From an uncultured Porphyromonadaceae bacterium (lineage in GTDB: Bacteria; Bacteroidota; Bacteroidia; Bacteroidales; UBA12481), in the NCBI GenBank assembly GCA_964355105.1, contig CAYHCO010000006.1, positions 102,378-166,377 of the forward strand: a stretch of 64,000 nt of DNA, in the 5' to 3' direction. The stretch's first letter is position 1, and each line of letters starts with the position of its first letter. The translations under genes and the position numbers were made by a program. Under the pieces are notes generated by a model. The model saw only the letters and a program-made list of their open reading frames with translations, was not told the origin of the DNA and ran no database searches. Positions 25,757 through 41,494 of the stretch are shown piece after piece.

Positions 25757-25927
25757 TTTTTGCAGTTAGGTCTACAGGTTTTCAGCGTTCAAGATATTCA
25801 AATTTATATATATCTGTATTCTTTCCAAATGCAAACAATCCACAGACCTAAAAGGTTGTGCAACAAGAAAGTTGAGATAATTAAATTTTGTATTTTCACT
25901 TTTACTAACCTATCAGGAGGAAAATAT

Positions 25928-26899
25928 ATGGAAACCAAAAGATTCTGGAAGATTGCCGGATGGATTGTGGTAGCTATTGGCGTATTGATTGGCGGAGCAC
26001 TGATATACCTCACCGGATTCAGGCTGAAAACTAAAGCCGCCGACATTAAGGTGGAAATAACTCCGGCCCGTGTGGAAGCCGGGAAATACCTGGCCAATCA
26101 TGTCATGGTATGTGTTGATTGTCATTCAGCCCGCGACTGGAGTCTATTCTCGGGTCCGCCAAAACCAGGTACCGAGGGTAGCGGCGGAGAAATATTTTCC
26201 GAAGATATGGGGTTTCCGGGCCGGTTTGTTGCGAGAAACATCACACCGTTTAACCTGAAAAACTGGACCGACGGGCAGCTGCTGAGGGCAATCACGGAGG
26301 GTGTGGACAATCGCAACATGCCACTTTTCCCGGTTATGCCGGCACCCTATTACGGCACGCTGGATCAGGAAGATATTTACTCGATCATTGCCTACCTGCG
26401 CACCATGCCTGAGAAAACCAATGTGTCTGAACCTTCCTATACCAGTTTTCCATTCAGCCTGATCATGTACATGATTCCGAAGAAAGCCGCATTTGTCGAT
26501 AAGCCCGCAAAAAGCGATACTGTGGCCTACGGGAAATACCTGTCCGCCGCTGCTGGCTGTGTGGAATGCCATACCGTAGCGCGCAGGGGAAAGATCGACC
26601 GGACGAAGGCCTATGCCGGTGGTCGCGAGTTTATCACTACATTAAAGACGGTAGTAGCTGCAAACATCACTCCATCAGTGACTACCGGCATTGGCCAGTG
26701 GACTGCTGAAGCCTTTATTGCCAGGTTCAAAGCATACGATCCGGCTGTTAATCCGCTTCCCAAAGCCCAGGATGTCGGGTTTAATACCGTGATGCCCTGG
26801 TCGATGTACGCAGGAATGGATTCGCTTGACCTGCATGCCATTTACCGCTACCTGCAAACCTTGGAGCCAGTGGAGAATACAGTGCAGAAAATCAGGTAA
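25928..26899 (+). CDS. membrane-anchored dihaem c-type cytochrome
   Basis: N-terminal TM helix WKIAGWIVVAIGVLIGGALIYL and two CxxCH motifs (CVDCH, CVECH). Start at ATG 25928, not the 25760 ORF extension. Confidence 0.8.
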   Translation: METKRFWKIAGWIVVAIGVLIGGALIYLTGFRLKTKAADIKVEITPARVEAGKYLANHVMVCVDCHSARDWSLFSGPPKPGTEGSGGEIFSEDMGFPGRFVARNITPFNLKNWTDGQLLRAITEGVDNRNMPLFPVMPAPYYGTLDQEDIYSIIAYLRTMPEKTNVSEPSYTSFPFSLIMYMIPKKAAFVDKPAKSDTVAYGKYLSAAAGCVECHTVARRGKIDRTKAYAGGREFITTLKTVVAANITPSVTTGIGQWTAEAFIARFKAYDPAVNPLPKAQDVGFNTVMPWSMYAGMDSLDLHAIYRYLQTLEPVENTVQKIR

Positions 26900-26909
26900 C
26901 CGTTCATTT

Positions 26910-27587
26910 TCAGAGCCCGGAACTGGTGATCGGCAGTAAATAATAGTAAATCGCAATAAAATGTGAAGCTGCGCCGGCAACCACCAAAAGGTGCCAGACG
27001 AGGTGGTGGTAATTAAAACGACCCAACCGATAGAAGAAAATGCCAATCGTATAGCATAAACCACCGATCAGTATCCAGATCAGGCCCATCAGCGTAAGAC
27101 TCTTGTAAAGCGGGACAATGGCTATTATAACCATCCAACCCATTGCCGCATAAAGAAGAATGTAAAAAAGATTGACCCCCTGATTGAACCGGGTCGGTTT
27201 AACCAGCTTGATAGTTATTCCGATAATTGCCAGACCCCACTCCAACCCGAAGATCACCCAACCAAAAGTTCCATGAAGCGCTACCAGGGTGAATGGCGTG
27301 TAGGTTCCGGCTATCAGGGTAAAAATTGCTATCTGATCAATGGTAAAAAAAACGTCCTTGGCTCTGCCTTGCTTAAGCCAGTGAGTCATCGTCGATGAGA
27401 AAAACAAAATGATCATGGTTACACCAAAAACCGCCGTACTCACGATGTGCCATGCATTTCCGATCCTGGCTGATTTTACAATAAGAAGTAACAGGGCAAC
27501 CGTTGCCAGAAGAGCTCCGGCCAGGTGAGACAATGCATTGGCCAGCTCCTCGTTCCTCGTGTATCTCGATTCGGGTTCAGTCATCAA
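26910..27587 (-). CDS. hemolysin III / PAQR family channel protein
   Basis: 225 aa, 7 predicted TM helices. N-terminal EELANALSHLAGALL and C-terminal HHLVWHLLVVAGAASHF. Confidence 0.85.
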   Translation of the reverse strand: MMTEPESRYTRNEELANALSHLAGALLATVALLLLIVKSARIGNAWHIVSTAVFGVTMIILFFSSTMTHWLKQGRAKDVFFTIDQIAIFTLIAGTYTPFTLVALHGTFGWVIFGLEWGLAIIGITIKLVKPTRFNQGVNLFYILLYAAMGWMVIIAIVPLYKSLTLMGLIWILIGGLCYTIGIFFYRLGRFNYHHLVWHLLVVAGAASHFIAIYYYLLPITSSGL

Positions 27588-27596
27588 TTTAGATTC

Positions 27597-28910
27597 CTAC
27601 CCCTTTTTCCAGTCGCGGTACTCGCGTGTCAGCCATGCAGGATTGCCGGTGCCGCTAGCAAAGCTGAGTTTAGCCGGATCCCACTTGATCGTCTCGTTAT
27701 GATAATAAAGCTGGTTCAGCAGGTGACAGCTGATTACCGTGCGACCGCCAACCTGTTCATTGGCAATCGGTTTCTTGCGTGTTTCCATGCAATCCAGGAA
27801 ATCCGAATAATGAGAAGTGCTGTTGTACAGTTTTATTTTCGCATCCTTCAGGAATTGCTCGTCAGCTTTTCTAAGCTCGGCATCCAACGTAGTTTCCTTG
27901 GTTGCCCCTCCGGTATATTCGGCAATCGTTTCGCCCTTGGAGATCATTTTGAAGGTTCCCCGGTTGACCATCACTTCGCCGTCGCTGCCAAAAAAGTGCA
28001 CCCCAAAACCCTGCTCCTTGCGGACCACGGTAATACCGTTGCCATATCGGAGTGTAGCTTCCCCATTGTTGAAAAATGCCTCCACCGGACCGCTGTCGTC
28101 CATGCCCAAACCCCACTGCGCGATATCCAGATGATGAGCACCCCAGTCGCCCACTCCACCGGTTCCATATTCGCGGTAATTACGCCAGGCAGGAAAATGG
28201 TTATGAATACCACGGGGACTCAGTATTGAATTGTAGGGCCGCATGGGTGCAGGTCCGAGCCAGAGATTCCAATCCAGACCGGGCTCCATCTCTTCTTCCG
28301 GAAGATCGCAGGGGGCAGGAGGTCCGCTGAAAACGGCTTCCACATGGTCGATGGTTCCGATGCATCCGTTGCGCACCAGCTCGCAGGCTATACGGAATTC
28401 CTTTGCCGACCTTTGCATCGAGCCGGTTTGCAGCACACGTTCATATTTTTCCACGCCATTCATCACGTCGATCGCCTCCTGAATATTATGCGTCAGCGGC
28501 TTCTCGCAAAACACGTCCTTGCCCTTCGCCAGCGCAGCCAAAATAATCATTGAATGCCAATGATCGGGAGTTGCGATGCAAACGGCATCGATATCCTTCC
28601 GGTCGAGCAATTCCCGGTAATCCTCGTATGCCTTGCACCCGGCGGCCCCTTTATGCGGATTGTCGTTATAATACTTGTCGGTCCATTTCTGTCCGTTGGT
28701 CCGGCGTGTGGTATCCACGTCGCACACCGCCAGAACCTGGGCCTCAGGTACGAATCGTGTGAGCAGGTAACGCGACTGTATTCCCATGCCGATAAAACCC
28801 ATGGTAATCCGGCTGTTAGGGGATTTCGACATGATGCACGAAGGAAGGATATACGGCACGGCCACCAGTGGAGCCAATGTCTTGATGAAGTTTCGGCGTG
28901 AGGTTTGCAT
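27597..28910 (-). CDS. Gfo/Idh/MocA-family oxidoreductase with twin-arginine signal
   Basis: TAT motif MQTSRRNFIKTLAP, Rossmann region GFIGMGIQSRY, EKPL motif (VFCEKPLTHN). 437 aa. Confidence 0.85.
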   Translation of the reverse strand: MQTSRRNFIKTLAPLVAVPYILPSCIMSKSPNSRITMGFIGMGIQSRYLLTRFVPEAQVLAVCDVDTTRRTNGQKWTDKYYNDNPHKGAAGCKAYEDYRELLDRKDIDAVCIATPDHWHSMIILAALAKGKDVFCEKPLTHNIQEAIDVMNGVEKYERVLQTGSMQRSAKEFRIACELVRNGCIGTIDHVEAVFSGPPAPCDLPEEEMEPGLDWNLWLGPAPMRPYNSILSPRGIHNHFPAWRNYREYGTGGVGDWGAHHLDIAQWGLGMDDSGPVEAFFNNGEATLRYGNGITVVRKEQGFGVHFFGSDGEVMVNRGTFKMISKGETIAEYTGGATKETTLDAELRKADEQFLKDAKIKLYNSTSHYSDFLDCMETRKKPIANEQVGGRTVISCHLLNQLYYHNETIKWDPAKLSFASGTGNPAWLTREYRDWKKG

Positions 28911-28967
28911 TTCGGAAAACGGGTTTAGTGATTTTCAATAAAGATATAGAAGATATAAATATCTGAA

Positions 28968-29885
28968 CTAATGCTGTATCGATTGGCCGCCCGCATATTT
29001 GAGAACGGTCCGGAAGATCGCCTCCAGCAGTCGCTCGAGATTCGATTTGCCGTTGTGGTTTATGTGGAGGCAGCCCGGCATCGAATTGATTTCACCCACG
29101 AGATACCCATCGGGGCCAAACAACAGATCGACACCGCACAACTTCACATCCATTGCTTTCACCACAGCTTTGGCAATCCTGACGGCTTCCGCATCGGGTT
29201 CCCAGTATTCACCCTGACCGCCCACCGAGATATTTGACCTGAAATCCTCGCCTTTTGAATTATCGCGAAGCACGCCAAATACCACCTCTCCGTCGCACAT
29301 GGTGATGCGGACATCGCGACCCTTGCTGGTGGCTACAAATTCCTGGGCGAGTAAGGTCTGGCCTGCGGTTTTGCAATACAGATCGTGAATATTCCGGAGT
29401 TCCTGAGCGGATTTGACCAGGCAAACCCCTTCCCCTTTCGACCCGTCGGGTAGCTTTACAACCATTGGGAAGCCGATCCGTTCGGCCAGCCAATCCAGTG
29501 ATGTATGCGCCTCCATCACCAGGGTTTTGGCTACCGGGATTCCCGCTTTCAACAAAATCTGGGCTGTATAGAGCTTATCGACCGACATAGCGATATTTTG
29601 AGCCTTGTGCGGCGAGAAAATTCCATGCATCTCCAACTGTCTCAGGAGGCTGAAATGAACCCAGTCCACTCCTTTCTCGAAAAGGCAGAGGGCAAAATCC
29701 GGTTTCGGGCGGTATTCTCCTTTTACATGCAGCTGCCCGATTTTATCCTCTGCCACTTCCAGACTGATATCTGAAAGATTCAGCTGCTCCAGCTTAAAGG
29801 GAAGATTACGGATCCTGGCGAGATCCTCGCCCGTGAAATAGCCCTGACCGTCTTTCTTATCTGAAATGATCCACCCGTTTAACAT
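28968..29885 (-). CDS. RimK-type ATP-grasp ligase
   Basis: ATP-grasp blocks: FPMVVKLPDGSKGEGVCLVKSAQEL, LLAQEFV, DVRITMCDGEVV, DFRSNISVGGQG, GVDLLFGPDGYLVGEINSMPG. 305 aa. Confidence 0.8.
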   Translation of the reverse strand: MLNGWIISDKKDGQGYFTGEDLARIRNLPFKLEQLNLSDISLEVAEDKIGQLHVKGEYRPKPDFALCLFEKGVDWVHFSLLRQLEMHGIFSPHKAQNIAMSVDKLYTAQILLKAGIPVAKTLVMEAHTSLDWLAERIGFPMVVKLPDGSKGEGVCLVKSAQELRNIHDLYCKTAGQTLLAQEFVATSKGRDVRITMCDGEVVFGVLRDNSKGEDFRSNISVGGQGEYWEPDAEAVRIAKAVVKAMDVKLCGVDLLFGPDGYLVGEINSMPGCLHINHNGKSNLERLLEAIFRTVLKYAGGQSIQH

Positions 29886-29901
29886 AACTATAGGTATTTA
29901 A

Positions 29902-31611
29902 TTATTTAATCCATTCATCATCAGGTTTTTCCCTGATCATTACCGGCAGCTTGACCTGTGTGGATGAACCTGTGATCCTGATTTTGGCATCATATAGCGC
30001 AGTCTGCCAGCCGGACCTCATCGGGATAATCCTGACAGGGTTCAGCAATTTATGCTCATTACACAAAATATCATATATAGAATTGGTTTCCATCAACCTT
30101 TTGTGTGTCTTTTCCGCTAGTGCCGACGGATCCCATCCGGCAACTGTTGCCGAAGTTTCGAGGTAACACAGATACCTTCGCTCATCCGGATCGGCATAAA
30201 TCTGGATCTGCACCGGAATCAGCCCCATCTTTCCGGCTATCTCCATTATGGCGTCCTGTACCAGGCTGGCCGGAATCTTTTCATCGCAGAGATTAAGCAC
30301 ATCGATGCTTTTATATTGGAAGACGATATTGGGAGTGTTGCCGGTGAAGCCCTCTACCCGCACGATATCATTCATATTGTAACGGTAAAGCCCTGACCAG
30401 GTGGTAACAACCAGTTCGTACGACTTCCCGTCCTCAAGCTGGTGTGCAAGGAGCGGTGCACCTCCATCTGCGGGCAGAAATTCGTAAAATGCGGTGTAAA
30501 CCGATAGCGTTCCGGCGGCATCGCCGGGTTTCGAGGGAATATTTATGCGAGCTTCGCTGGCTCCGTAACCCGCATCAAAAAAGGCTACCTGGTCTGACAG
30601 CATGGGTTTGAGGTCTTTAACGTAATGGCCAACGGTTGACGAGATCCAGAAGGCAACCAACTGCAGAGATGGCCAGTAATCCTTAGGTAACAGCGAACCT
30701 GTCTCTTCGAGCATCTCCTGAAGCTCAGCCGCCCGTTCAGGATCGGGCACAAGCATCGGAGCCAGTTTCTCCATGACCGGCTGGTCGATTATCAATGTGC
30801 TGCTTACCGTACCTGCTGCGATATCCCGAATTATTTCAGCTGCCCGGCCGGAAGCCAGCTGAATCAACCGGGCAAACCGTCCGGCATTATTCCCGATCAC
30901 CATCACCACATTTCGCTGAGCCAGCGCAAAACGCATCATGAGGTAATCACGGCTTTCGGCATCTTCATTAACCAGAATGCAGGCGGGTACTGCAAATTTC
31001 ATCCCGGGTCCTTCCGAGATATTCTGGTTCAGGGCTATGCCCGATGCAAAACCTACCGGTATGCCGGCCGAAGTGGGCGGACACGCCTGGGCATTGGAAA
31101 GGGGAAGCACGTAACCGTTTCTGTCGATCTTGGGAAAATTAACCGCCAGCTGCATTTTCCGGAAGCGCGAAACCATCTGTTTGGCTATGATGCCGGTCTG
31201 GCTTTCGGGCACAAGCTTTGACTTCCCAGCAGCGGTTCCACTGGTTTTTACAAACACCTGGGCCCGGCCCGGAAACAGAATATCCTCCGCACCCTCAGCC
31301 AAACGGTCGACAATCGTTTCGTAGTCATGCCAGTCTGAGATCGGTACCCTTTCGCGGAATTCATCAATGGAAGAAATATTCCCGAAACCGTATTTTCTGC
31401 CTGTTTCCGTATCGGCGGATGCCCTGAGAATCTGCTTAAGGACGGTCTCTTGTATCCTGGCTGGATCGGAAAAGCCTGTCATCGCCAGTCGCAAAAATTC
31501 AGGATCCGGCATCTTTTTCAACAGTTCGGGCAAACTGTACTTGTCAAAATCCGGATGATCATAAACAGGTTGGTTCATATCGATATTTTCTTTATTCATT
31601 ACCTGATCCAC
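29902..31611 (-). CDS. GH3-family acyl-acid amido synthetase-like adenylating enzyme (paralog B)
   Basis: GH3 signature blocks: VKTSGTAAGKSKLVPES, DAGYGASEARINIP, GLYRYNMNDIVRVEGFTGNTPNIVFQYK. 569 aa. Start overlaps the upstream paralog by 13 bp. Confidence 0.75.
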   Translation of the reverse strand: MDQVMNKENIDMNQPVYDHPDFDKYSLPELLKKMPDPEFLRLAMTGFSDPARIQETVLKQILRASADTETGRKYGFGNISSIDEFRERVPISDWHDYETIVDRLAEGAEDILFPGRAQVFVKTSGTAAGKSKLVPESQTGIIAKQMVSRFRKMQLAVNFPKIDRNGYVLPLSNAQACPPTSAGIPVGFASGIALNQNISEGPGMKFAVPACILVNEDAESRDYLMMRFALAQRNVVMVIGNNAGRFARLIQLASGRAAEIIRDIAAGTVSSTLIIDQPVMEKLAPMLVPDPERAAELQEMLEETGSLLPKDYWPSLQLVAFWISSTVGHYVKDLKPMLSDQVAFFDAGYGASEARINIPSKPGDAAGTLSVYTAFYEFLPADGGAPLLAHQLEDGKSYELVVTTWSGLYRYNMNDIVRVEGFTGNTPNIVFQYKSIDVLNLCDEKIPASLVQDAIMEIAGKMGLIPVQIQIYADPDERRYLCYLETSATVAGWDPSALAEKTHKRLMETNSIYDILCNEHKLLNPVRIIPMRSGWQTALYDAKIRITGSSTQVKLPVMIREKPDDEWIK

Positions 31612-33263
31612 TCAGGGGATGGCTTCTCACGAATCATGATCGGCAGTTTTACCTGCGTGGAACTTTGTCCGGCGCCGGTTTTTGCCTGGTAGAGCGATTC
31701 CTGCCAGCCTGTTTTCATCTCTATTATTCTCAGCGGGAAGAGAAGGTTTAACTTCACCATGATGAGATCGTAAATTTCCTGTTTTTCGGCCAGATCCGCA
31801 TTCGCCCGTGAGGCCAGCAGGCCGGCATCGAAACCCGATGTTTCCGGTGTCGGCTCCAGGTAACACTGGTATCTCCGTTCCTTTTCATCAGCAAACACCT
31901 GCACCTGAACCGGGTCGATGCCCAACGATTGTGCCACTTCGCGAATGGAATCATTCACGGCACCCGCCGGAACTTTCTCGTCGGCAATATTCAGGATCTC
32001 TCCCATCTTATATTGAAAAACAATATTTGGGGTTTTTCCGGTAAATCCCTGTACCTTAACCATATCCATCAGGTTATATCGATACAGGCCTGACCAGGTG
32101 GTGATAACCAGCCGGTAGCTTGCCTGGTCCTTAAGCTCATGGGCAAGGAGTGGTGTGCCTCCACTTTCAGGGATGAACTCATAGAAAGCAGTAAGCAGCG
32201 AAAGGACTCCGGCCGCCTTACCGGGTTCCGACGGGACATTGAATTTTCCTTCGCTGGCGCCGTAACCCATATCCATATACCTGGCACCTTCGGGCATCAT
32301 CGGCACGATATCCTTGATATAATGGCCGACTGAAGCCGAAAGCCAAAATGCAAGAAGTTGAAGCGAAGGCCAGTAATCCCTGGGCAAAATCCTGCCACCG
32401 GTCTGCTTGATGAGCCTGAGTTCGGCTGCCCGCGCTGGATCCGGCCGGACTCCGCTGAGCAATCTCTCACGCTGGGCAGGATCATCGATGCCTGCGCCGT
32501 CAACTGTTCCCCGTTCAATATCGAGGATGATATCATGACTGGCACCATCAGCGAAGTTTGCAAGCTCACGAATCCTTCCGGCATTGTTACCTGCGATCAT
32601 GACCACATCGGGTTGCTGGATAGCAAAACGCATCAGCAGGTAATCCCGTGAGCGATTTTCGGCGACTTCAAAAATGGCCATTGGAAAAGCAGTACGGATC
32701 GCACTACCGCCCTGCAGGCTTTGGTTCAGCGTGAGTCCCGATGCATACTGCACAGGTATGCCGCTGGCAGTCTTCGCTCCCCGGGTAGCGTTCGACAGTG
32801 GCAGGATGCAACCGCTCTGCAGAAGGCCGGGAAAGTGCCGGTTCAGCGCGATAAGCCTCAGGTTCATGACCGTATTCCTAGCTACAGCGCCCGGTCGGCT
32901 CTCGGGAATCAGTTTTGGTTTGGTTCCGGTCGTCCCGGAAGTCGCAACAAAGCATTCCGGAGCCCCAGGGAACAGGAGATCCTTCTCGCCGTTCGCCATC
33001 CTGTCGGAGTAGGGTTCAAAATCAGGCCACTCTCGAATGGGCACCCGTCGCTGAAAATCCAGGCTGTTTTGGATGGATTCAAAATTGTGCTGCCGGCCAA
33101 ATTCGGTATCCCTGGCAATATCAATAATTTGTTTTAAAACCAGTTCCTGAACCCGTGCGGGCTCCTCGCAACTCCCGGCAGCCAGCCGGGCCAAATCGCG
33201 AAGTCCGGATTCAGCCAGTAGATCCGGAATTCTCTTGTTATCGGTGAATAATTCGTCGATCAT
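31599..33263 (-). CDS. GH3-family acyl-acid amido synthetase-like adenylating enzyme (paralog A)
   Basis: VATSGTTGTKPKLIPES, DMGYGASEGKFNVP, GLYRYNLMDMVKVQGFTGKTPNIVFQYK. Colinear with 29902..31611. Confidence 0.75.
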   Translation of the reverse strand: MIDELFTDNKRIPDLLAESGLRDLARLAAGSCEEPARVQELVLKQIIDIARDTEFGRQHNFESIQNSLDFQRRVPIREWPDFEPYSDRMANGEKDLLFPGAPECFVATSGTTGTKPKLIPESRPGAVARNTVMNLRLIALNRHFPGLLQSGCILPLSNATRGAKTASGIPVQYASGLTLNQSLQGGSAIRTAFPMAIFEVAENRSRDYLLMRFAIQQPDVVMIAGNNAGRIRELANFADGASHDIILDIERGTVDGAGIDDPAQRERLLSGVRPDPARAAELRLIKQTGGRILPRDYWPSLQLLAFWLSASVGHYIKDIVPMMPEGARYMDMGYGASEGKFNVPSEPGKAAGVLSLLTAFYEFIPESGGTPLLAHELKDQASYRLVITTWSGLYRYNLMDMVKVQGFTGKTPNIVFQYKMGEILNIADEKVPAGAVNDSIREVAQSLGIDPVQVQVFADEKERRYQCYLEPTPETSGFDAGLLASRANADLAEKQEIYDLIMVKLNLLFPLRIIEMKTGWQESLYQAKTGAGQSSTQVKLPIMIREKPSPEWIR

Positions 33264-33275
33264 GCCTGAAAGAGT

Positions 33276-34718
33276 TTACACCATACGGTAATAAAGATCC
33301 CTGATATAATCCCGAAGTTCATTCGCCCTGGCACTGAACAGCTGGATCTTGTCGAAATCGAATTTCTGGTTCAGAAGATTAGTGTATATCAGATCCCACG
33401 ACCCTGAGGCGTTGGGTTTTATGCCGCAGAAAACGTAGCCGTTCTTAGCGAGCAGGCTATCCAGACCGGACGGCAGGTTCATTGCGGTTGGGATGATAAC
33501 ATTTACGGTAGCCATGGAATCCTGCGCCAGTGCCCGTGTATGCTTTCTTAAGGCCGTGTCGAAATCTTTTCCTGTTGCATCGATCATGAGCGAGGCACGT
33601 CGGGCCTCCTCATCCCTTTTCACCTCGGTCAGCGTTTCACCCGCCCAGGTATCCGAATCACAAATCAGCACATCGATGCTGATCCCGCCGGCAGTAAGCA
33701 GTTCTTTAATCAGGGTATAGTGTTCCTGCGGAACGTACATAGGCTTATCCTGCATCCGGCCGGTGATGGTAGCGTATGCGAAAATCAGGCTTTCGCGTGG
33801 ATTCATGTCGCCGTTGCTTCCCACAAAATCCGCTCGCTGGTACACTGAAAGTTCCAGCAGGCAAGGTGTGAATCCGGTCATGAATGCCTGGCTCGACTTA
33901 TGTGAGGTCACAGCTTTGATGTACAGAACCATAGCCGGATATTGCTCCACGACCGCCTCGCGGGTAGTCCTGACCAGCTGTATGAATGCCCTTGATCTTC
34001 GGTATTCCGGATCCACCATGGCCATACCCACTTCGCCCAGTTCGGAACTTTCGAAAAGGACCGCATTATGTCCGATGATTTTCCCCGTAGGGGTGACCGC
34101 TATCAGGGAAGCAATATTCCCCTTCTCAATGGCTTCGCTCAGCTTTTCAGGACTGTATGCAAACGATTTTGCGTAGGAATAGCGGTACGTATTGTATACT
34201 AAATTGATGATTCCCGGAACATCATCGCGGGTTGAACGCTTTACCAGGTATTCAGATTCTGTTTCCGTCCGGTTATTAGGCGCTGGCTCCCGGGTTACTT
34301 CGCTGAGTCTGGTAAAATTTCTGATTTTTGATCTGATCACCAGTTCCCAGCCGTTGCGGCCCAGGTTACGGAAATCCAGCTCTTCGCTGAAACTTCGCAG
34401 CAGGCGGAGCGATAACCCGTCGGCTGTGGCGTCCGCATCATCAATAGAAAAGTCGCGAATTTCACGTACATCCATCGGCCTTCCGTGGTTGGAGAACTGC
34501 CAGATCAGTCCGTCATCAGTTTCCATACAGCGCAAATGGAACATCTCACTGAAGTCCTGGTCGGGGATTCCGCCCATAATAAAGGAAAAAGCCTCCTCAC
34601 CAAGCAAACGCAGCCTCATTTGTTCCGAGCCGTCGGCCCCGTAACTGGTGCCGGCTGCCTCCATGAAGGAAGCCACAACATTGGCAAAATCAACCTGGTA
34701 GGGAACAACGATTTCCAT
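33276..34718 (-). CDS. GNAT-type acyltransferase with N-terminal RsbW/HATPase-like domain
   Basis: The N-terminal about 130 aa resemble anti-sigma kinase-like folds (GLSLRLLRSFSEELDFRNLGRNGWELVI). Central GNAT-like block IGHNAVLFESSELGEVGMAMVDPEYRRSRAFIQLV. 480 aa. The domain calls are tentative. Confidence 0.55.
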   Translation of the reverse strand: MEIVVPYQVDFANVVASFMEAAGTSYGADGSEQMRLRLLGEEAFSFIMGGIPDQDFSEMFHLRCMETDDGLIWQFSNHGRPMDVREIRDFSIDDADATADGLSLRLLRSFSEELDFRNLGRNGWELVIRSKIRNFTRLSEVTREPAPNNRTETESEYLVKRSTRDDVPGIINLVYNTYRYSYAKSFAYSPEKLSEAIEKGNIASLIAVTPTGKIIGHNAVLFESSELGEVGMAMVDPEYRRSRAFIQLVRTTREAVVEQYPAMVLYIKAVTSHKSSQAFMTGFTPCLLELSVYQRADFVGSNGDMNPRESLIFAYATITGRMQDKPMYVPQEHYTLIKELLTAGGISIDVLICDSDTWAGETLTEVKRDEEARRASLMIDATGKDFDTALRKHTRALAQDSMATVNVIIPTAMNLPSGLDSLLAKNGYVFCGIKPNASGSWDLIYTNLLNQKFDFDKIQLFSARANELRDYIRDLYYRMV

Positions 34719-34772
34719 TTTAGACGAACAATTGAGGTTCAGACAAAGAGCTTGCCGATCGGTCGTCTAAAA
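34718..34772 (-). promoter_or_regulatory. leader stem-loop abutting the GNAT start codon
   Basis: TTTTAGACGA (34718-34727) and TCGTCTAAAA (34763-34772) are perfect reverse complements, 35 nt apart. On the minus-strand transcript the 3' arm ends on the A of the AUG. Confidence 0.3.
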
Positions 34773-34786
34773 TTAGGAAAGTTTAC

Positions 34787-36691
34787 CTATTGAATCACCA
34801 GTCGTCGCGTATTGGTAAAATCCCCGGCTTTGATGGTATAGAAATAGACGCCCGACCCCAGGTCGCCCAAATCCAGGCTAACCGAATGTTTACCGGCCGG
34901 CATCATGCCCTGGTTGATTATTTTCACCTTACGCCCCGAAAGATCCATAACATCGAAAGTTACCTTGGATCCGGCTGCCAGCTCATAGCTGATTTCAGTA
35001 GTGCGGCTGAAGGGGTTCGGGTAATTCTGCCCGAGGAATGACTGAGCCTCGATCGGACCGGTGCCATCATTAATATTGCGATGATCGTTCAGGTTCAGAC
35101 GGATCATCAGGTTTCGTTTCCCGATAAAATCGCCGAGACCGGTTTCCCAGCTTCCCTCGTAGAATCCAATGGCTGTCGACTCGATCAGTTTCACGGAGTT
35201 GTCGGTACCAATTTCGAGCCCTTTGTTACGGCGCACCAGATATTCCTCGTTCAGGTTGTCGAAGGTGATTCCGGCATAAACCAGATCCCCTTTTGTCAGG
35301 AATTCCGATTCACCGTCCTTGTCAAACGGCAGGGTAACCCAGGTATTGAAATCAGCCGAATCCAACTGGATGGTTTCGGTCGACAAAAGCTCAAACGGAG
35401 TAGGATCCGACTGCCCTACCGGGACATAATAGAGTGAATACCGGTAATTTATAAATTGATCAGCCTTCCCACCTGCAATAAACACAGAGATCGAGCTCAC
35501 TTCACAATCATTGTATATCGGTAGGATCGATCCATTGAAGAAACCGACATTGGATGTGGCATTGGCATTGTAACGCTCCTTGGTAAACGACCAGGCCAGG
35601 TCGTTCGAATCATCGGCACGGGAATAAATACTGTCGGTGACGTTGAAGTAAACCTCCTTTTTATTGTCGGCCGGTTTTTCATCCACGAATTTCGACTTGA
35701 ATTCCATTGCCAGTTTGTAATGACCGAATTCGGCCGGTGAATAACGGTCTGCAATTCTGACCGTATCTGTTACCAGCACTGCAACATCCTTCTTTGGCGA
35801 CATCACATGAAAAACGCTGTTTCCGTTTTTGGTTATATCCAGATCCAGGTATACATCTTCCTGATCATATTCACCAAAATTAAGTCCCATTGTTTCGAAA
35901 TTGAAGAACCCGTTGGTACCGGTCAGCTGCGATTTCGGGATATTGTAAATCCAGGACACGTTGGTATTCGGATCATTATCATCCCATTCCATCTTGGCAT
36001 AACTGATTTTCAAATCATTGTTGTAAGCCTCTGCAAGGGAAAAATCATCGATTGCCCAATAGTAATATGCTGAATTCATCCAGTGCAGCCTCATTTTCAC
36101 ATCAGACATACCTGCGGCCACATCAGAGATATTCACCTCCATGATAGCCGGCACTCCCTTAGGCCTGTCGAGGGGCCTGTCTTTATGACCGGCGCCGAAG
36201 TTTACACTGTAGGTCGCAGAATGCACCCAATTGTCGACACTGATTTCCAGAAACATATCCACCGGCGATGAACCCATAAAATGCGTTTCATACTTTACTA
36301 CCACTGATGAATGAGCGCTGCAGTTCATGGTGGGAAAAACAACCGAGTTATTCACCTGAATCTCAGGAGCCCCAACGGTTTGGAACAGTTCCATAAAAAG
36401 CGCAAGGCATCCGTTATCCATGGTTGTTGACTGGAGCATCGGGTCCTGGGTTAAGCGTCCCACAAAAGGCCCTTTCCACCAGACAAAGTTGGTGCCCTGA
36501 TCTTTAGGATCCAGGAACGAATATCCGGCCGGTGCTGTCCAGCCTTTCGGATCGGCAGGGTTTTCCCAGCCAAATGTTTCGGTGTAGAATATTTTCCCGT
36601 CGCCGTTGGCAATGGGAGTCTGCCCTTGCACTTCAGTCACAGCCAGTAAACAGGCCAATACCACCAGAAGCTTAAATACTTTCATGTTCAT
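34787..36691 (-). CDS. T9SS-secreted protein of unknown function
   Basis: Signal peptide MKVFKLLVVLACLLAVTEVQG. Canonical sorting domain at the C-terminus: NYPNPFSRTTEISYEL...GVYFYTIKAGDFTNTRRLVIQ. Confidence 0.75.
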   Translation of the reverse strand: MNMKVFKLLVVLACLLAVTEVQGQTPIANGDGKIFYTETFGWENPADPKGWTAPAGYSFLDPKDQGTNFVWWKGPFVGRLTQDPMLQSTTMDNGCLALFMELFQTVGAPEIQVNNSVVFPTMNCSAHSSVVVKYETHFMGSSPVDMFLEISVDNWVHSATYSVNFGAGHKDRPLDRPKGVPAIMEVNISDVAAGMSDVKMRLHWMNSAYYYWAIDDFSLAEAYNNDLKISYAKMEWDDNDPNTNVSWIYNIPKSQLTGTNGFFNFETMGLNFGEYDQEDVYLDLDITKNGNSVFHVMSPKKDVAVLVTDTVRIADRYSPAEFGHYKLAMEFKSKFVDEKPADNKKEVYFNVTDSIYSRADDSNDLAWSFTKERYNANATSNVGFFNGSILPIYNDCEVSSISVFIAGGKADQFINYRYSLYYVPVGQSDPTPFELLSTETIQLDSADFNTWVTLPFDKDGESEFLTKGDLVYAGITFDNLNEEYLVRRNKGLEIGTDNSVKLIESTAIGFYEGSWETGLGDFIGKRNLMIRLNLNDHRNINDGTGPIEAQSFLGQNYPNPFSRTTEISYELAAGSKVTFDVMDLSGRKVKIINQGMMPAGKHSVSLDLGDLGSGVYFYTIKAGDFTNTRRLVIQ

Positions 36692-36872
36692 GAGATTTAG
36701 TAACGCAATATACCTTTTAAGTGAATTGCCGCGACTCAATCCTTTTGCCTCAAGTGTGTATTAATTTGATGGCTGTCGATTCTTGATTCACCGGTATTTC
36801 TACTGAATTGACCGAAATGAAAATGCGCGGATCATGGTTGACCTGTACTTTTGATCAGAAATTCAATCGAAC

Positions 36873-38360
36873 ATGAAAAAGAAGGTTGTAATAATTGGTG
36901 GCGGAGTTGCCGGGTTATCAGCCGGGATCTATTCGGCCATGAACGGGTTTGATACTGAAATCCTGGAGATGCATACGGTGGCAGGCGGCCAGTGCACCGC
37001 CTGGGACCGGAAGAAATACCGGTTTGATTATTGCCTCCACTGGCTGGTGGGAACATCCAAAGGGGCTTTTCACGAAATCTGGAAGGAAACCAATGTCATA
37101 AACAGCGAAACGGTGATCGTGAACCACAAGATCCATTCGAGGATCCTCGACCGGGAAGGGAATGAGTTCTATATTTACTCTGATATTGACCGCTGGGAAA
37201 AATACCTGCTCGAAATTGCGCCTGAAGATGAGAGCCCCATTAGAAGAATGTGCCGTGACATGCGCACGAGTGCACTCCTGGAACCCTTTGCCCTGCCGCC
37301 CGAATTGCGCAGTCCGCTCGATTATATCAGGATTCTGCCAACCATGCTTCCTATTGCCAATGTGGTCAGAAAATTTGGCCGCCTTACCTGCAAAGAATAT
37401 TTTGATAAGCTAAACTTCAGCAACGAAAAAATCAGATCGATTCTATATTCCATGTATGGCGACCGGAATTTTTCGGCACTGGCTTTTATTTTCATGCTCG
37501 GCTGGTTTCATCAGAAAAATGCCGGATACATCATAGGCGGATCGTACCCGCTGGCGCAGCGAATGCTGGAAAAGTTTGAAAGTCTGGGCGGAAAAATATC
37601 CTATAAAAAGAGAGTCGCCAAAATAATTGTTGAGAACGATGTTGCCCGGGGAGTGCTGCTTACCGACGGATCCCGGATCGAGGCCGATTACGTGATCGGT
37701 GCAGCCGATGGATATTCCACCATCTATAAAATGCTGGATGCCGCGTACGTATCGAAACAAATCGATTTTGCCTATAATAACTGGGAACTCTTTACTCCCA
37801 TTGTTCAGGTTTCGTTCGGTATCAATCAGGTTATTAAAGCCGAAGAGCCGATCCTTATCAATTTATCGAAAGATCTGATGATCGGGCGCACCCGGTTGGA
37901 GAACGGTTACAACATCATGAATTATGCCCATGACCCGACGATGGCTCCCGAAGGGAAAACGACCATTGTTTTGCGGTATGAAAGTCCTTGGAAACTATGG
38001 GAGAATCTCGACGGGGAAGAATACAAAAACGAAAAGCTTCAGATTGAGAATGATGCGACTGCATTGCTGGAGAAAGAATTTCCGGGAATTTCAAAGTTCA
38101 TCGAGGTGATTGATGTGGCGACTCCCAAAACCGATGTCAAATATACCGGAGTGAAGGATGGCGCTTACGAGGGCTTTATGCCATCAAAAGAGAACATGAT
38201 GAAATCGTTGAAAATGAAACTTCCCAAACTTCAGAACTTCTACTTGGCCGGTCAGTGGTTATTCCCCGGCGGCGGGCTTCCACCCGCTGCACAGACCGGA
38301 AAATGGGCCGTGCAGTTGATTTGCAGGAAAGAGAACCGGAAGTTTGTTTCCAATAAATAA
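36873..38360 (+). CDS. NAD(P)/FAD-dependent oxidoreductase, CrtI/phytoene-desaturase-like (third in window)
   Basis: VVIIGGGVAGLSAGIYSAMNGFDTEILEMHTVAGG dinucleotide fold. 495 aa. C-terminal AGQWLFPGGGLPPA. Confidence 0.85.
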   Translation: MKKKVVIIGGGVAGLSAGIYSAMNGFDTEILEMHTVAGGQCTAWDRKKYRFDYCLHWLVGTSKGAFHEIWKETNVINSETVIVNHKIHSRILDREGNEFYIYSDIDRWEKYLLEIAPEDESPIRRMCRDMRTSALLEPFALPPELRSPLDYIRILPTMLPIANVVRKFGRLTCKEYFDKLNFSNEKIRSILYSMYGDRNFSALAFIFMLGWFHQKNAGYIIGGSYPLAQRMLEKFESLGGKISYKKRVAKIIVENDVARGVLLTDGSRIEADYVIGAADGYSTIYKMLDAAYVSKQIDFAYNNWELFTPIVQVSFGINQVIKAEEPILINLSKDLMIGRTRLENGYNIMNYAHDPTMAPEGKTTIVLRYESPWKLWENLDGEEYKNEKLQIENDATALLEKEFPGISKFIEVIDVATPKTDVKYTGVKDGAYEGFMPSKENMMKSLKMKLPKLQNFYLAGQWLFPGGGLPPAAQTGKWAVQLICRKENRKFVSNK

Positions 38361-38422: not shown

Positions 38423-41400
38423 TTATTTAAAATCGATCTGCCACTTAACGGTGGCATTTTTGCCGGATTCGATTTTTATCCTGAATAAGCCATTGTCACT
38501 TTTTGTTAATGAAATTCTTGCATCCGGATTTGAACAGGATACTTGCTCCGGTGCAAAACCATCCGGGGCAATAGTCAGGACATAAGGATCGCCGCCGACC
38601 ACATTGCTCGTTCCCGACAGGATTTTCCTTCCGTTGTCCCATTTTTCATCGGACATATCAAGATATCCCTGCATGATATGGCGGTCAGCAGATAATACCC
38701 GGGGATGGGCTGTTACTTCCCTTACCGACATCATTCGTGCCTCTCCCGGTCGGAGTTTCTGCTCCAGCCGGTCGGATCCTTTATATATGCCGATATAATT
38801 ATCATTCCAGAAATCGTAAACATAATAGGCTTTGTGGGGATCAAGCCCGAGCGCACCCTCCACGGTTTCGCCGGCCAGGTTGATGCCAATGTTTTTTTCG
38901 TGCTCAAAATCGCCGTTGTAAAAGGTCAGCTGGTGCCATCCTTCATCAACCTTGAAATCGTAAACCGTAGGATAGTCGCTTACGAAGGCATCAATTGGCC
39001 TGGCGGTTCTGTTCTCCACCGGATAAGGAAAAGTGCGGGTAAGGTCGCGTAATGTTTCAGGCGAAAATTGGGAGTAACTGTTTGCCAGAAGCAGACGACC
39101 AGTAGTCACGAAGGCCATGGTCACGACCGCACGCACCTGATCCCTGCTTCCCTGCAGGCGGGCAATATTCTTGGAATCCGTATCCTGATTGTACAGAACC
39201 CGGTTTTTGTACCAGCGCAGTCCGCAGCGGGTAACCGTGATTTTATCCATCTGGTCGGTATCATTCTCCGTGCGCATGGAAGCAACGAATCCTATTGCCA
39301 CATCGCTTCCCCTCTCCATATTGCGCTCATCTACATAGGATTCCGGGCCCAGACCTTCGTAGGGCATCCGGAAGATATTCCGGTAAGCTGCCGCCGTAGT
39401 TGAATAGGGATCCTCCATGCCACCTCCTGAAGCCCATCCCGAGAACGGATAATCGAACATCAGGCCCTTGATGCCGCCGGATGCAAGGTTTTTATACACC
39501 TCCTTCAGATGGCTTAGGAAACCCGGATCGGTATAATCATATCCCCACACAATTCGGTTCCGGGTCCAGGTTTGATTCCATGATTTAAACATTTCGCCGG
39601 CCGTATCCTGGGGTGCACCTACCCATGCGTAGGTTTTGTTGAAGAGCATGTGCCCGGGGAAAGCTTTGGCATAATCCTCCGACCTGAATCCGGTTTGAAA
39701 ATAGGTAATCGGGATCCCACCCAGGTTGGTCACCGCCTTACCCCATTTTTCTGACGTTTCGTAAGGTGCTAAATAGCGCCCGTTCTGGCTGGCATTCAGA
39801 TCAGTCTCCGCCATCTGCCAGTGCTTGTCGTCCCACCAGCCCTGCTGGTTGTCAGGCAGATAAGAATCAGGCACCAAACGCACGGCAGCCCGGCTGTAAT
39901 TCAGAAAACCGCTTTCAGCAATAATGCCCATCTCTTTAACGGCCCCTGGGGTATTGTTTTTTGCCACTCCTCCGCCATAATCGCTCACTTCAGCGTACCA
40001 GAGGCATACCGATGGGAAATCATACATGCTCAGTTTGATATCCTGGGCCTTGCTGACAAGCAGCCCGTATTGTTCGAGGGCTTCGAAAGGATCGGGGCGG
40101 GTTACATCGATATAAAATTGATCGTCAGGAATATAGGTTGTTCCCGGATCCACTTTTTTACCCACAGGATCCAAAGCAAACAAGCTCGCCGTATATTCCC
40201 TTCTTGGCCTCACACACTCATTAATCTGAGTAAGCTGATCCTTCAACAGAGGCTCATAATTGCCATCGCGGAGCCAAAACTCATTCAGATAAACATTCGG
40301 ATCCTTCGCGTTGTTTTCGTAATCACCTGCCGCATGTTCCACCACCAATTGAAATGCGCCTGCCTCTACTGCATCCGCTGGCACCAGCATCTCCACCTGT
40401 TCAACATCCTCTTTTTTCACCCCATCAAAACGAGGGAGGAGCTGATTTTCCAAAAGAGGCATCCTGATAAGCTTATAATCTTTCATGAATTCCACAAAGA
40501 CTGACTGCCGGTGATCTTTTCGATCGCCATGCCTCAGACCTCTCCACCAGGAGAAACCCAGAAGATATGGCTTTCCCTTGTCAAGATTTTTAATGTCCAG
40601 GATGATTTTCTCCGGGTCCATGGCTGAAGTTGCCGTTTCAGTGCATCTGAACTCATGGTTCTGCCAGGTTTGTTTGAGAGTACCCTTCACCAGTTCCAGC
40701 TTTTCGCCGCTTGCCGACTCGTCCGATTTATCATCCGGCAGGTTCAGATAGCACAACAAGCTGCTTTTATCATCAATACCCTTTTCCAGTTCTACTGGGC
40801 GGCTTTGCGCCATGGAAGCAAATTTTTCAAAATCGGAGTAGGTCAGTCCGCCCATCACCAGAGTTTGCCGCAGCTGGCCTTTGCCGAAAGTCAGGAGGAT
40901 ATTGTTCCGCGACTTGAGGGCGTATTCCCTGGTCAATGGGGAATACATCCTTAGACCATATTCAAGCGGTTCTCCGCCGCTGAAACCGTCGATCATGGCG
41001 AAATTCTCCGGGAAGACCGTTCCGTCGTAGGCCATTCCACCGGCCAAAGCATGGATTTCCTTGACCTGAATAGATTCAGCCGTTGTATTATCGATCCCGC
41101 CCGATATCGTAAAATATCCCTCGTTTTCATAGAGTGTGAACCGGAAGAGCATCCGCGGCTGATTATCCGATTCAATTTTAAGTGACAGTGCCATCCCTTT
41201 GCCCGGATCATCTGAAACCGATTGTTTTTCCCAGGTGAACCGGGTGTTTGCATCTCCGGACGACCAGTTATTTATCTTGAGGACAGCATCCCTGATCGGG
41301 ATTGTATTATCCTTAAGGTTCCTGATGCTGTATTTTCCATCCACCAGGTTAAAACTCAGGCTCACCAACTCATTTTTAAGGACCACCGCATCGCCGTCAC

Positions 41401-41494
41401 GTTTGACTTTCACTCCCTCAGTACAGGAAGCTGAAAGCATAACCAGGGCCGACAACAATGCTCCAACGATCAATAAATGTCTGATTTTCTTCAT
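38423..41494 (-). CDS. large lipoprotein, putative glycoside hydrolase (alpha-galactosidase-like TIM barrel suspected)
   Basis: 1023 aa. SpII signal LVMLSASC. The central region (GGIKGLMFDY, ASMRTENDTD) loosely recalls clan GH-D motifs. It is the last gene of the Sus-like operon. Family not established. Confidence 0.4.
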   Translation of the reverse strand: MKKIRHLLIVGALLSALVMLSASCTEGVKVKRDGDAVVLKNELVSLSFNLVDGKYSIRNLKDNTIPIRDAVLKINNWSSGDANTRFTWEKQSVSDDPGKGMALSLKIESDNQPRMLFRFTLYENEGYFTISGGIDNTTAESIQVKEIHALAGGMAYDGTVFPENFAMIDGFSGGEPLEYGLRMYSPLTREYALKSRNNILLTFGKGQLRQTLVMGGLTYSDFEKFASMAQSRPVELEKGIDDKSSLLCYLNLPDDKSDESASGEKLELVKGTLKQTWQNHEFRCTETATSAMDPEKIILDIKNLDKGKPYLLGFSWWRGLRHGDRKDHRQSVFVEFMKDYKLIRMPLLENQLLPRFDGVKKEDVEQVEMLVPADAVEAGAFQLVVEHAAGDYENNAKDPNVYLNEFWLRDGNYEPLLKDQLTQINECVRPRREYTASLFALDPVGKKVDPGTTYIPDDQFYIDVTRPDPFEALEQYGLLVSKAQDIKLSMYDFPSVCLWYAEVSDYGGGVAKNNTPGAVKEMGIIAESGFLNYSRAAVRLVPDSYLPDNQQGWWDDKHWQMAETDLNASQNGRYLAPYETSEKWGKAVTNLGGIPITYFQTGFRSEDYAKAFPGHMLFNKTYAWVGAPQDTAGEMFKSWNQTWTRNRIVWGYDYTDPGFLSHLKEVYKNLASGGIKGLMFDYPFSGWASGGGMEDPYSTTAAAYRNIFRMPYEGLGPESYVDERNMERGSDVAIGFVASMRTENDTDQMDKITVTRCGLRWYKNRVLYNQDTDSKNIARLQGSRDQVRAVVTMAFVTTGRLLLANSYSQFSPETLRDLTRTFPYPVENRTARPIDAFVSDYPTVYDFKVDEGWHQLTFYNGDFEHEKNIGINLAGETVEGALGLDPHKAYYVYDFWNDNYIGIYKGSDRLEQKLRPGEARMMSVREVTAHPRVLSADRHIMQGYLDMSDEKWDNGRKILSGTSNVVGGDPYVLTIAPDGFAPEQVSCSNPDARISLTKSDNGLFRIKIESGKNATVKWQIDFK

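Follow-up and report, generated by a model that had tools for sequence, protein, structure and literature searches.

A conserved cassette of GH3 and RimK-type ligases with a three-domain acyltransferase-like protein in an uncultured Porphyromonadaceae bacterium: a candidate pathway to small amide conjugates

The DNA analysed here, hereafter the window, is a 64,000-nucleotide stretch of a metagenome contig (CAYHCO010000006.1, positions 102,378 to 166,377) from an uncultured Porphyromonadaceae bacterium, and it matches the ENA assemblies ERZ4201063 and ERZ4201064 identically. Four genes on its minus strand form a compact cassette (Table 1). They encode a protein without database annotation, named HG480, two paralogous GH3 acyl-acid amido synthetases (GH3-A and GH3-B) and a RimK-family ATP-grasp ligase. 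The cassette recurs in at least four bacterial phyla.

Table 1. Genes of the cassette, the spacer in front of it and the domains of HG480 (positions in the window)
Feature	Position	Strand	Description
HG480	33276..34718	minus	Three-domain protein of 480 amino acids; first gene of the cassette; ATG start at 34718
GH3-A	31599..33263	minus	554 amino acids; GH3 acyl-acid amido synthetase, adenylate-forming
GH3-B	29902..31611	minus	569 amino acids counted from the most upstream GTG; second GH3 amido synthetase
RimK-family ATP-grasp ligase	28968..29885	minus	305 amino acids; alpha-L-glutamate-ligase type
Spacer 5' of HG480	34719..34786	minus	68 bp; starts after the stop of the upstream type IX secretion system (T9SS) gene
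RsbW/HATPase_c_2-like (GHKL) domain	34314..34718	minus	HG480 residues ~1-135
GNAT-fold acyltransferase domain	33759..34247	minus	HG480 residues ~158-320
Degenerate second GNAT-like domain	33279..33752	minus	HG480 residues 323-480; compact alpha/beta fold

A preliminary description of this DNA had reported four packed open reading frames (ORFs), and the positions of two of its gaps, 12 bp between HG480 and GH3-A and 16 bp between GH3-B and the RimK-type gene, were confirmed. The 13-bp overlap that it placed between the two GH3 genes holds only when GH3-B is started at the GTG at 31611. With a start at the in-frame ATG at 31599, GH3-B would overlap the stop codon of GH3-A as TAATG (31597-31601; 1-nt overlap), and public gene callers start GH3-B at the ATG at 31578, which leaves a gap of 20 bp to GH3-A. 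Under any of these starts the two genes are tightly packed, and the TAATG junction suggests that translation of the GH3 paralogues may be coupled. The right-hand end, which had been set at 34772, falls within the spacer and not at the start of the first gene. This spacer is the sole possible site for a cassette-specific promoter; its single weak sigma-70-like match (34746-34717) is no better than those in shuffled sequence. Promoter and terminator scans as a whole gave matches no richer than in shuffled sequence and are uninformative on transcript structure.

No Rfam match at E<=1, and no riboswitch, was found between positions 26000 and 38000, nor did Rfam recognise a riboswitch or leader in 16 related loci. 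Divergent loci have no precursor-peptide ORF in common, the shared small ORFs being limited to near-identical ones. A graspetide-type ATP-grasp system making a ribosomally synthesised and post-translationally modified peptide was rejected, as no precursor gene is adjacent and the gaps within the cassette are at most 16 bp. In addition, the defence models of PADLOC-DB 2.0 gave no match to the four cassette proteins at E<=0.01, and a tblastn search of the PLSDB plasmids with HG480 gave no match.

The two GH3 proteins were compared with the Pfam family models PF03321, PF23571 and PF23572, for which the gathering score of the GH3 domains is 23.6 bits. PF03321 matched GH3-B at 3.7e-61 (207.4 bits) and GH3-A at 2.8e-57 (194.7 bits), and GH3_M matched them at 5.6e-20 (71.7 bits) and 3.8e-17 (62.6 bits), respectively. 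The GH3_C match of GH3-B (2.1e-4) reaches 22.4 bits against the gathering score, and GH3-A has none at E<=0.01; the C-terminal region aligns with plant GH3 up to residue 548, with QVKLP opposite QYKVP. The paralogues are 50% identical and share the blocks TSGT(T/A)xGKxKLxP, GYGASE, SGLYRYNxxD and the C-terminal QVKLP, which read ATSGTTGTKPK, GYGASE and YRYNLMD in GH3-A and KTSGTAAGKSK, GYGASE and YRYNMND in GH3-B. Both therefore carry the expected nucleotide-binding motifs (S/T)SGT(T/S)xGxxK, YxxSE and YRxxD. GH3-A aligns end to end with Vitis GH3-1 (4b2g, 1.1e-26) over the P-loop, YxASE, YRYxxGD and QxKxP, and as judged from this alignment all its catalytic motifs are intact. The two diverged GH3 paralogues of the preliminary description, together with the motifs quoted for them, are thus borne out by the PF03321 matches and by the alignment with plant GH3 structures. 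The only NCBIfam model matched by these proteins is NF052613 (OlsH), at 63.4 and 56.7 bits against a cutoff of 620 and confined to their N-terminal nucleotide-binding stretches. Orthology with OlsH was rejected because the score is far under the equivalog cutoff.

The RimK-type protein matches PF08443 (4.3e-34, 118.2 bits) and passes the subfamily model TIGR00768 rimK_fam with 154.8 bits against a cutoff of 143.4, in agreement with its first assignment as a RimK-type ATP-grasp ligase. More specific identities were tried and rejected, namely RimK proper (NF007764, 93.3 bits against 331), LysX (TIGR02144, 101.1 against 275.6), MptN (87.5 against 350) and CofF (68.3 against 300). Its best PDB matches are the Escherichia coli RimK structures 5zct and 4iwx (~4e-24), with which the ATP and Mg residues align in VVKLxxGSxGxGV, QEF, DFRSNxxxGG, GVDLL and EINSxPG.

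HG480 itself has no Pfam or NCBIfam match at E<=0.01, and its nature was read from relatives and from fold comparisons. Among 26 homologues, 22 match HATPase_c_2 (PF13581; best 3.6e-8) and seven match Pfam GNAT models weakly (best homologue E 7.5e-4). The homologues gathered first numbered 60; the family comprises 2002 cluster representatives at E<=1e-3 and 451 at E<=1e-30, and nearly all of the best 150 listed are full-length (480-510 amino acids). In the source databases its members are called just 'ATP-binding protein' or 'anti-sigma regulatory factor/GNAT'. An AlphaFold2 (AF2) model of HG480, with a predicted local distance difference test (pLDDT) score of 80.9, was used for Foldseek searches.

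The N-terminal part of this model matched RsbW (6m36_A, TMt 0.86), although the HATPase_c_2 score of the window protein is 13.2 bits against a cutoff of 27.4. Moreover, the N-domain of the L049 homologue (Desulfobacterales) aligns with RsbW 6m36_A at 1.2e-11 over the N-box, G1 and G2. Residues G79, P81 and G123 of HG480 are invariant across the family. In the window protein the N-box Asn column holds Phe46 (Asn occurs in 65 of 184 relatives), and N77-H-G79-R-P81 stands where the RsbW-type G1 box has DxGxG. Since the N-box Asn is lost, kinase or ATPase activity of this domain is doubtful. It is probably non-catalytic in the window protein, and a docking or regulatory role seems more likely than that of a kinase.

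The central domain gave Foldseek GNAT matches at probability 1.0, among them PA4794 (5e-8), RimI (5isv, TMt 0.79) and CBU0801 (TMt 0.81), and the HG480 family profile gave a marginal GNAT match among PDB sequences (3lod, E 0.11). Across 184 relatives E229, R240, H273, S276, Q277, R308, E309 and S310 are near-invariant, which argues that the domain is under a catalytic type of constraint. The C-terminal domain of 158 residues, modelled alone (pLDDT 92.7), showed weak Foldseek matches to GNAT proteins (3dns, 4.4e-4; RimI 2cnm, 8.9e-4; TM 0.4-0.47 over ~100 columns), and the full-length model also matched the tandem-GNAT proteins 2wpx, 9en3 and 3c26. No significant sequence repeat between the GNAT and C-terminal domains was found by hhalign, so that the assignment of a second GNAT-like domain comes from the weak Foldseek match. 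HG480 can accordingly be described, on the model, as an RsbW-like domain followed by a GNAT domain and a putative degenerate second GNAT-like fold, resembling a tandem-GNAT arrangement. The combination of an RsbW/HATPase-like domain with a GNAT domain had been recognised before, and the third domain is added here. Taken together, the hidden Markov model comparisons that had been suggested matched the ligase ORFs to GH3 and ATP-grasp models directly, and GNAT and HATPase_c_2 by way of homologues and folds.

When collections of genomes and metagenomes were scanned with a profile of HG480, 37 loci (here labelled L followed by a number) were obtained, which fall into 20 non-redundant groups, and synteny is kept in 11 of the 20. 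The order HG480 (one or two copies)-GH3-GH3-RimK is found in metagenome-assembled genomes (MAGs) of Bacteroidota (L007, L009, L010/L030 and L016/L034) and is also seen on the partial contigs L006, L008 and L011. In gut and rumen Bacteroidales MAGs (Prevotella, Phocaeicola, Parabacteroides) the genes are rearranged as [RimK]-GH3-MFS-[GH3]-HG480, where MFS denotes a major facilitator superfamily gene. GH3-A is orthologous to the first GH3 of L009, L010 and L016. The duplication that gave GH3-A and GH3-B arose within the Bacteroidota lineage, and across the loci GH3 genes were duplicated in at least two independent events.

Outside this phylum the ligases are joined into single polypeptides. In Sporomusa malonica an HG480 homologue is followed by an 855-amino-acid RimK::GH3 fusion, and fusions of RimK with GH3, from Sporomusa and from Desulfobacterales and Verrucomicrobia MAGs, make up 24 protein clusters. 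Apart from those of ~855 amino acids they include, at L051:4561-8796, a single protein of 1411 amino acids (P0068) with the arrangement RimK-GH3-GH3. Its gene stands between one for an HG480 homologue and one for an MFS protein, with a long acetyl-CoA-synthetase-like gene divergent upstream. An HG480 homologue, full-length and with 24-36% identity, adjoins the RimK::GH3 fusion in six of the seven loci examined, and the two genes often overlap stop to start. An MFS gene is adjacent in five of these seven loci, and Sporomusa has a divergent MatE gene instead. By the Rosetta-stone argument, these fusions indicate that the three ligases and HG480 form one functional unit. At one fusion locus (L052:10794-14531) genes for an Asp/Glu racemase, for a sodium:dicarboxylate symporter of Glu/Asp and for two proteins that bind amino acids lie immediately 3' of, and convergent with, HG480-RimK::GH3-MFS. 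These neighbours may hint at Glu or Asp, perhaps in the D-form, as building blocks, a hint that comes from one locus only.

A fifth partner, which the preliminary description had missed, is present in most of the other loci. It is a gene of ~413 codons for an efflux protein of the DHA1 type of MFS, belonging to the drug/H+ antiporter subfamilies (Bcr/CflA, EmrD), and in the other full cassettes it follows RimK wherever the sequence continues (L007, L009, L010, L016, L030 and L034). No MFS homologue was found by tblastn in the 64 kb of the window, the lone match being an artefact of an over-extended ORF that overlaps RimK. The gene content of the loci forms a graded series, from two HG480 genes with MFS, followed by a patatin gene (L029), through GH3-MFS-HG480 (L024 type) and the fusion loci with HG480, RimK::GH3 and MFS, to HG480 with two GH3 genes, RimK and MFS (L010 type). 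The ends of this series can be compared directly. Between L029:8988-13188 and L010:6549-14979 the DNA identity is 86% over the two HG480 genes and 80% over the MFS gene; the junction between these measures 18 bp in L029, whereas in L010 it is occupied by 4.25 kb with GH3-GH3-RimK. This precise indel, together with the content series, indicates that the ligase block is a sub-module that can be inserted between a constant HG480 and the exporter, and both fit a stepwise extension of a core product.

Patatin genes were seen near two unrelated cassette variants, downstream of the MFS gene at L029:13170-14018 and at L053:10869-13417, in an operon with a separate GH3 gene convergent to RimK::GH3-MFS. 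These patatin-like phospholipases hint at a free-fatty-acid substrate. HG480 also stands without ligases in Lentimicrobiaceae-type MAGs (L013, L014, L021, L027, L028 and L031). In such loci (e.g. L014:7998-11046) a 338-amino-acid lipoprotein with two sCache_2 domains follows 20 bp downstream, with a convergent 185-amino-acid lipoprotein and a TonB_C protein upstream. No recurring neighbour theme was found at the HG480-only loci, where a xylose-isomerase-like TIM barrel, LDH, P450 and a Crp regulator were seen.

RimK-family enzymes add L-glutamate to a carboxylate by way of an acyl-phosphate, and GNAT enzymes transfer an acyl group onto an amine. GH3 enzymes, as known from plants and from OlsH, convert a carboxylate and ATP to an acyl-AMP and then to an amide with an amino acid (PMC12493201). 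We hold, with moderate confidence, that these four genes supply the enzymes of a conserved and modular amide-ligase pathway, which works without the ribosome or non-ribosomal peptide synthetases (NRPS) and yields a small N-capped conjugate of the acyl-amino-acid or short-peptide type. An amino acid or amine would first be N-acylated by the HG480 GNAT domain from an acyl-CoA, the acyl group probably being acetyl or otherwise of short or medium length, to give a blocked 'acid' starter. GH3-A and then GH3-B would each adenylate a free carboxylate of the growing molecule and form an amide with the amino group of a further amino acid, after which the RimK-type enzyme would activate the new C-terminal carboxylate as an acyl-phosphate and add one or more glutamate-like residues. 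In most genomes the DHA1-type MFS protein would then export the product. HG480 and the ligases probably act as a physical complex. Since the product of a GH3 exposes a new alpha-carboxylate, of the sort that enzymes of the RimK family extend, and an N-acylated amino acid suits a GH3 as its 'acid', the order cap, extend, glutamate, export is the most economical one, and it is consistent with the graded gene content and the indel. While the domain identities, the retained motifs, the synteny, the fusions and the indel were established computationally, it is the substrates, the step order and the export that we infer.

Several points weigh against this proposal. The order of its steps is one that we purely infer. 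No gene of the cassette supplies an unusual building block, and RimK itself and LysX/ArgX act on proteins and not on small molecules. The window locus lacks the exporter, and its product may be intracellular or the cassette may be incomplete here. The GNAT domain of the window protein scores 13.4 bits with Pfam Acetyltransf_9 against a cutoff of 25, and its loop R240-R-S-R-A-F has both Gly of the Q/RxxGxG/A acyl-CoA loop replaced; Arg240 is kept in 171 of 184 relatives and the first Gly position, Arg in the window, is Gly in 73 of 184. On a contig of the sister assembly ERZ4201064 (L002:14834-15764), otherwise identical to the window, a 13-bp length difference splits RimK into ORFs of 107 and 206 amino acids. 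The split region corresponds to the whole RimK gene of the window and reflects either pseudogenisation at the population level or an assembly error. Furthermore, HG480 is also found where no ligase is present, by itself, next to a Cache lipoprotein or among unrelated genes, which makes it more than a mere tailoring enzyme for the ligases; it may have a ligase-independent function, for example in resistance or regulation.

Other functions can be imagined for the same genes, and the closest is a sub-case of the proposed pathway that differs in the acyl substrate. The GH3 enzymes would adenylate free fatty acids and attach amino acids to them, the RimK-type enzyme would add Glu, the MFS protein would flip or export the amphiphile and HG480 would acylate or cap it, so that lipo-amino acids or lipopeptides are formed. 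OlsH, the one characterised bacterial GH3, does use free fatty acids, ornithine and ATP (PMC12493201), and it is the single NCBIfam model touched by both window GH3s; likewise, lipases of the patatin type, which release free fatty acids, stand at the two independent loci L029 and L053, and Foldseek also matched HG480 to 9emp, the structure of a histidine N-acyltransferase that holds an N-myristoyl product. Nevertheless the OlsH scores of 63 and 57 bits fall far from 620 and concern the N-terminal region only, no gene for an OlsI-type alpha/beta-hydrolase O-acyltransferase was found in the window cassette or in the related loci examined, patatin occurs in just 2 of ~27 distinct loci, and the MFS protein is of the drug/H+ antiporter type and not an LplT-type lipid flippase. 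A lipid product is therefore rather unlikely. We also judge it unlikely that the cassette serves conjugative detoxification, in which exogenous or toxic acids (e.g. phenolic acids from plant-polysaccharide breakdown) would be conjugated to amino acids by the GH3 enzymes, made more polar with Glu by the RimK-type enzyme and expelled by the MFS protein, with HG480 acetylating or sensing them. Plant GH3s inactivate hormones and auxinic herbicides in this manner (PMC12493201), the cassette MFS falls in multidrug-efflux subfamilies, and the closest GNAT folds include the drug or antimetabolite acetyltransferases PA4794 with chloramphenicol, TTR (1ghe), ArsN (5wph) and BAR (5t7d). Although several loci, the window included, adjoin polysaccharide-utilisation loci (PULs), this is expected by chance in Bacteroidota, and the Sporomusa, Desulfobacterales and Verrucomicrobia loci have no such context. 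Moreover, a RimK fused to one or two GH3 modules resembles an assembly line more than a broad-spectrum detoxifier, and no regulator or sensor is consistently linked.

The fold neighbours of HG480 have also to be considered with regard to immunity, for they include TTR, BAR, ArsN and PA4866-type acetyltransferases of glutamate analogues. Self-protection by acetylation is known from microcin C (MccE/MccC), tabtoxin (TTR) and phosphinothricin (PAT). HG480 and MFS could then be a resistance pair, the ligases making a peptide antimetabolite whose toxic free amino-acid form is N-acetylated by the GNAT, so that HG480 would not be biosynthetic. HG480 with MFS in the absence of ligases, and the clean ligase indel, are what would be expected of non-producers that keep resistance. 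We consider this improbable, since no locus contains genes for the biosynthesis of a warhead, HG480 is also found without both MFS and ligases, and its position at the head of the operon, with translational coupling to the fused ligase gene, would rather be expected of a subunit of the pathway. Still less credible is a function in protein or peptide tail modification or in signalling, with the RimK-like and GH3 enzymes adding residues to a protein C-terminus or side chain and HG480 acting as an RsbW-like partner-switching kinase and protein acetyltransferase. RimK, LysX and ArgX are, as families, modifiers of protein C-termini, RimK itself is the best PDB match of the ATP-grasp enzyme, RimI, Ard1 and NatA, which acetylate protein N-termini, are among the neighbours of the GNAT fold, and the N-domain of HG480 is homologous to the anti-sigma kinase RsbW. 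However, the commonest extra partner is a multidrug-type MFS exporter, neither a conserved small ORF nor a LysW- or S6-like carrier protein occurs within the cassettes or close to them, the scores with the RimK and LysX equivalogs lie far under their cutoffs, the Asn for RsbW-type ATP binding is missing here and in about two thirds of the relatives, and no STAS or sigma-factor partner is conserved nearby. As to chance adjacency of unrelated genes, or misannotated ORFs, the synteny in 11 of 20 locus groups, which crosses phyla, the fusions in at least three other phyla and the block indel exclude it for practical purposes. The survey of neighbourhoods that the preliminary description had called for thus gave co-localised, and even fused, genes in related as well as unrelated genomes.

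The general reading as a ribosome-independent amide-conjugate pathway is strengthened by these results, since the ligase ORFs match their family models, the genes are co-localised elsewhere and no already characterised cluster with these genes was found in the literature search or in NCBIfam, PADLOC and Rfam; its product and the order of its steps are still proposals. Beyond this amide-ligase pathway a more specific picture can be drawn, which we regard as possible and offer only tentatively. HG480, GH3 and RimK would be a physically coupled assembly line that had so far escaped notice, with separate subunits in Bacteroidota and one polypeptide elsewhere. Bacteria of four or more phyla, Prevotella, Phocaeicola and Parabacteroides of gut and rumen among them, would secrete a new class of N-capped and glutamate-tailed oligo-amides. 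Their length would be set by the number of GH3 and RimK units inserted between HG480, as the starter enzyme, and the exporter, and the RsbW-like pseudo-kinase would be a docking or gating element.

The surroundings of the cassette in the window contain SusC/D genes, T9SS cargo proteins and a hybrid two-component regulator, and its flanking genes accompany the cassette in no other genome compared. Upstream of HG480 lies a gene for a 650-amino-acid protein (34787-36739) in which only a T9SS sorting tail was recognised. This gene and that for a 1023-amino-acid protein without Pfam domain (38423-41494) lie between a SusC/SusD/Big_7 PUL and the cassette, and an amine-oxidase-like flavoprotein gene (36873-38360, plus strand) lies between the two. 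Downstream of RimK, after 57 bp, follow a Tat-signal GFO/IDH/MocA oxidoreductase gene and then a TrhA/HlyIII gene (26910-28967). The Tat-signal protein (region 25760-28910) resembles the BT_2158 glycoside 3-dehydrogenase family (2e-46, below the cutoff), and with a nearby cytochrome-c-domain gene on the opposite strand it may form a periplasmic sugar-oxidising pair unrelated to the cassette. Farther away are two ordinary metabolic genes, for a homologue of RACo-type corrinoid reductive activases with Fer2 and RACo domains (1482-3041) and for a CBM20-bearing GH77 4-alpha-glucanotransferase (7614-10355).

With this cassette bacterial GH3s gain a second context, which differs from that of OlsH, can be tested directly and is supported by the RimK fusions and the dedicated exporter. 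The cassette also defines a large unannotated family with RsbW-like, GNAT and GNAT-like domains, for which 451 or more cluster representatives are known. Should a small amide prove to be the secreted product, a GH3 adenylating ligase with an ATP-grasp ligase would be a new NRPS-independent enzyme logic, and a new class of metabolites could be expected in gut, rumen and sediment microbiomes. If the assembly line described above is true, the Bacteroidota GH3 expansion would receive its first pathway-level role beyond aminolipids. The fused version has cultured carriers (Sporomusa malonica, S. silvacetica DSM 10669 and Azotosporobacter soli), so that the hypothesis can be tested at the bench.

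Among known systems, the plant GH3s (VvGH3-1, 4b2g; AtGH3.12/PBS3, 4epm; JAR1, 4epl) are homologous to the window GH3s over their full length, with E values from 1e-26 to 9e-17, and share the P-loop, YxASE, YRYxxD and QxKxP, and the same two-step acyl-AMP and amide chemistry may be expected. They are nevertheless distant in sequence, at the level of the Pfam family, and the window enzymes are bacterial tandem duplicates. Moreover, unlike the plant enzymes, the cassette GH3s are in an operon with, or fused to, an ATP-grasp ligase and are linked to an efflux pump. The preliminary description had stated that bacterial GH3 homologues have no assigned pathway, which is outdated, as OlsH of Singulisphaera acidiphila was characterised in 2025 and makes N-acyl-ornithine (lyso-ornithine lipid) from a free fatty acid, ornithine and ATP (PMC12493201). 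It remains the sole one with a known function among more than 7500 bacterial GH3 hits, almost 90% of them in Bacteroidota, and the roles of the thousands of Bacteroidota homologues are described as unknown, with no mention of ATP-grasp partners (PMC12493201). The window GH3s are analogous to OlsH in their predicted ATP-dependent use of a free acid and an amino acid, whereas the partners of OlsH, the O-acyltransferase OlsI and OlsG, are not present here and the window GH3s are accompanied by RimK and HG480, and elsewhere by MFS.

With the RimK family (E. coli RimK, RIMKLA/RIMKLB, MptN, CofF and LysX) the window ligase shares the subfamily score and the catalytic residues, although it falls under every equivalog cutoff and has no S6- or LysW-type substrate gene nearby. 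The mammalian RIMKLA/RIMKLB make N-acetyl-aspartyl-glutamate and beta-citrylglutamate. In the succession of NAT8L and RIMKLA an N-acetyl amino acid is extended by Glu, which parallels the proposed order of GNAT and then ligase. A fusion with GH3 was described for no known RimK-family member in the literature searched. Similarly, GNAT and ATP-grasp are combined in Ngg, the N-acetylglutaminylglutamine amide synthetase (TIGR03103), a GNAT::ATP-grasp protein that makes an N-acetylated dipeptide. This identity was tried and rejected, as the score is 23.9 bits against 569, the domain order and partners differ, and there is no AsnO amidotransferase and GH3s are found instead. HG480 has an N-domain homologous to the RsbW/SpoIIAB kinases, yet it is fused to tandem GNAT-like domains, and no RsbV/STAS or sigma-factor partner is present at HG480 loci. 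No bacterial cluster combining GH3 with RimK, ATP-grasp or GNAT was found in the literature search, nor is the locus recognised by an NCBIfam equivalog, a PADLOC model or an Rfam element, in accordance with the earlier remark that no described system with these four genes was known to its author.

The nearest relatives in logic are the ligase-only pathways, such as those with DdaG/DdaF for dapdiamide and with the L-amino-acid ligases for bacilysin and tabtoxin. Like the cassette they have stand-alone ATP-dependent amide ligases that act in succession, of the adenylate-forming and of the acyl-phosphate-forming class; as a rule an exporter goes with them, and in some cases a GNAT. In the case of E-64 an ATP-grasp enzyme and an amide-bond synthetase (ABS) build the small peptide (PMC12568646). 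In contrast to these pathways the adenylating enzyme of the cassette is of the GH3 type and not of the ANL acyl-CoA-synthetase-like or ABS type. In addition, the cassette has no warhead enzymes, has the extra RsbW-GNAT-GNAT protein and is spread over several phyla. The general kind, small-amide biosynthesis by stand-alone ligases, is thus a known one, and what is new is the combination of enzymes, their fusions and the three-domain HG480 family.

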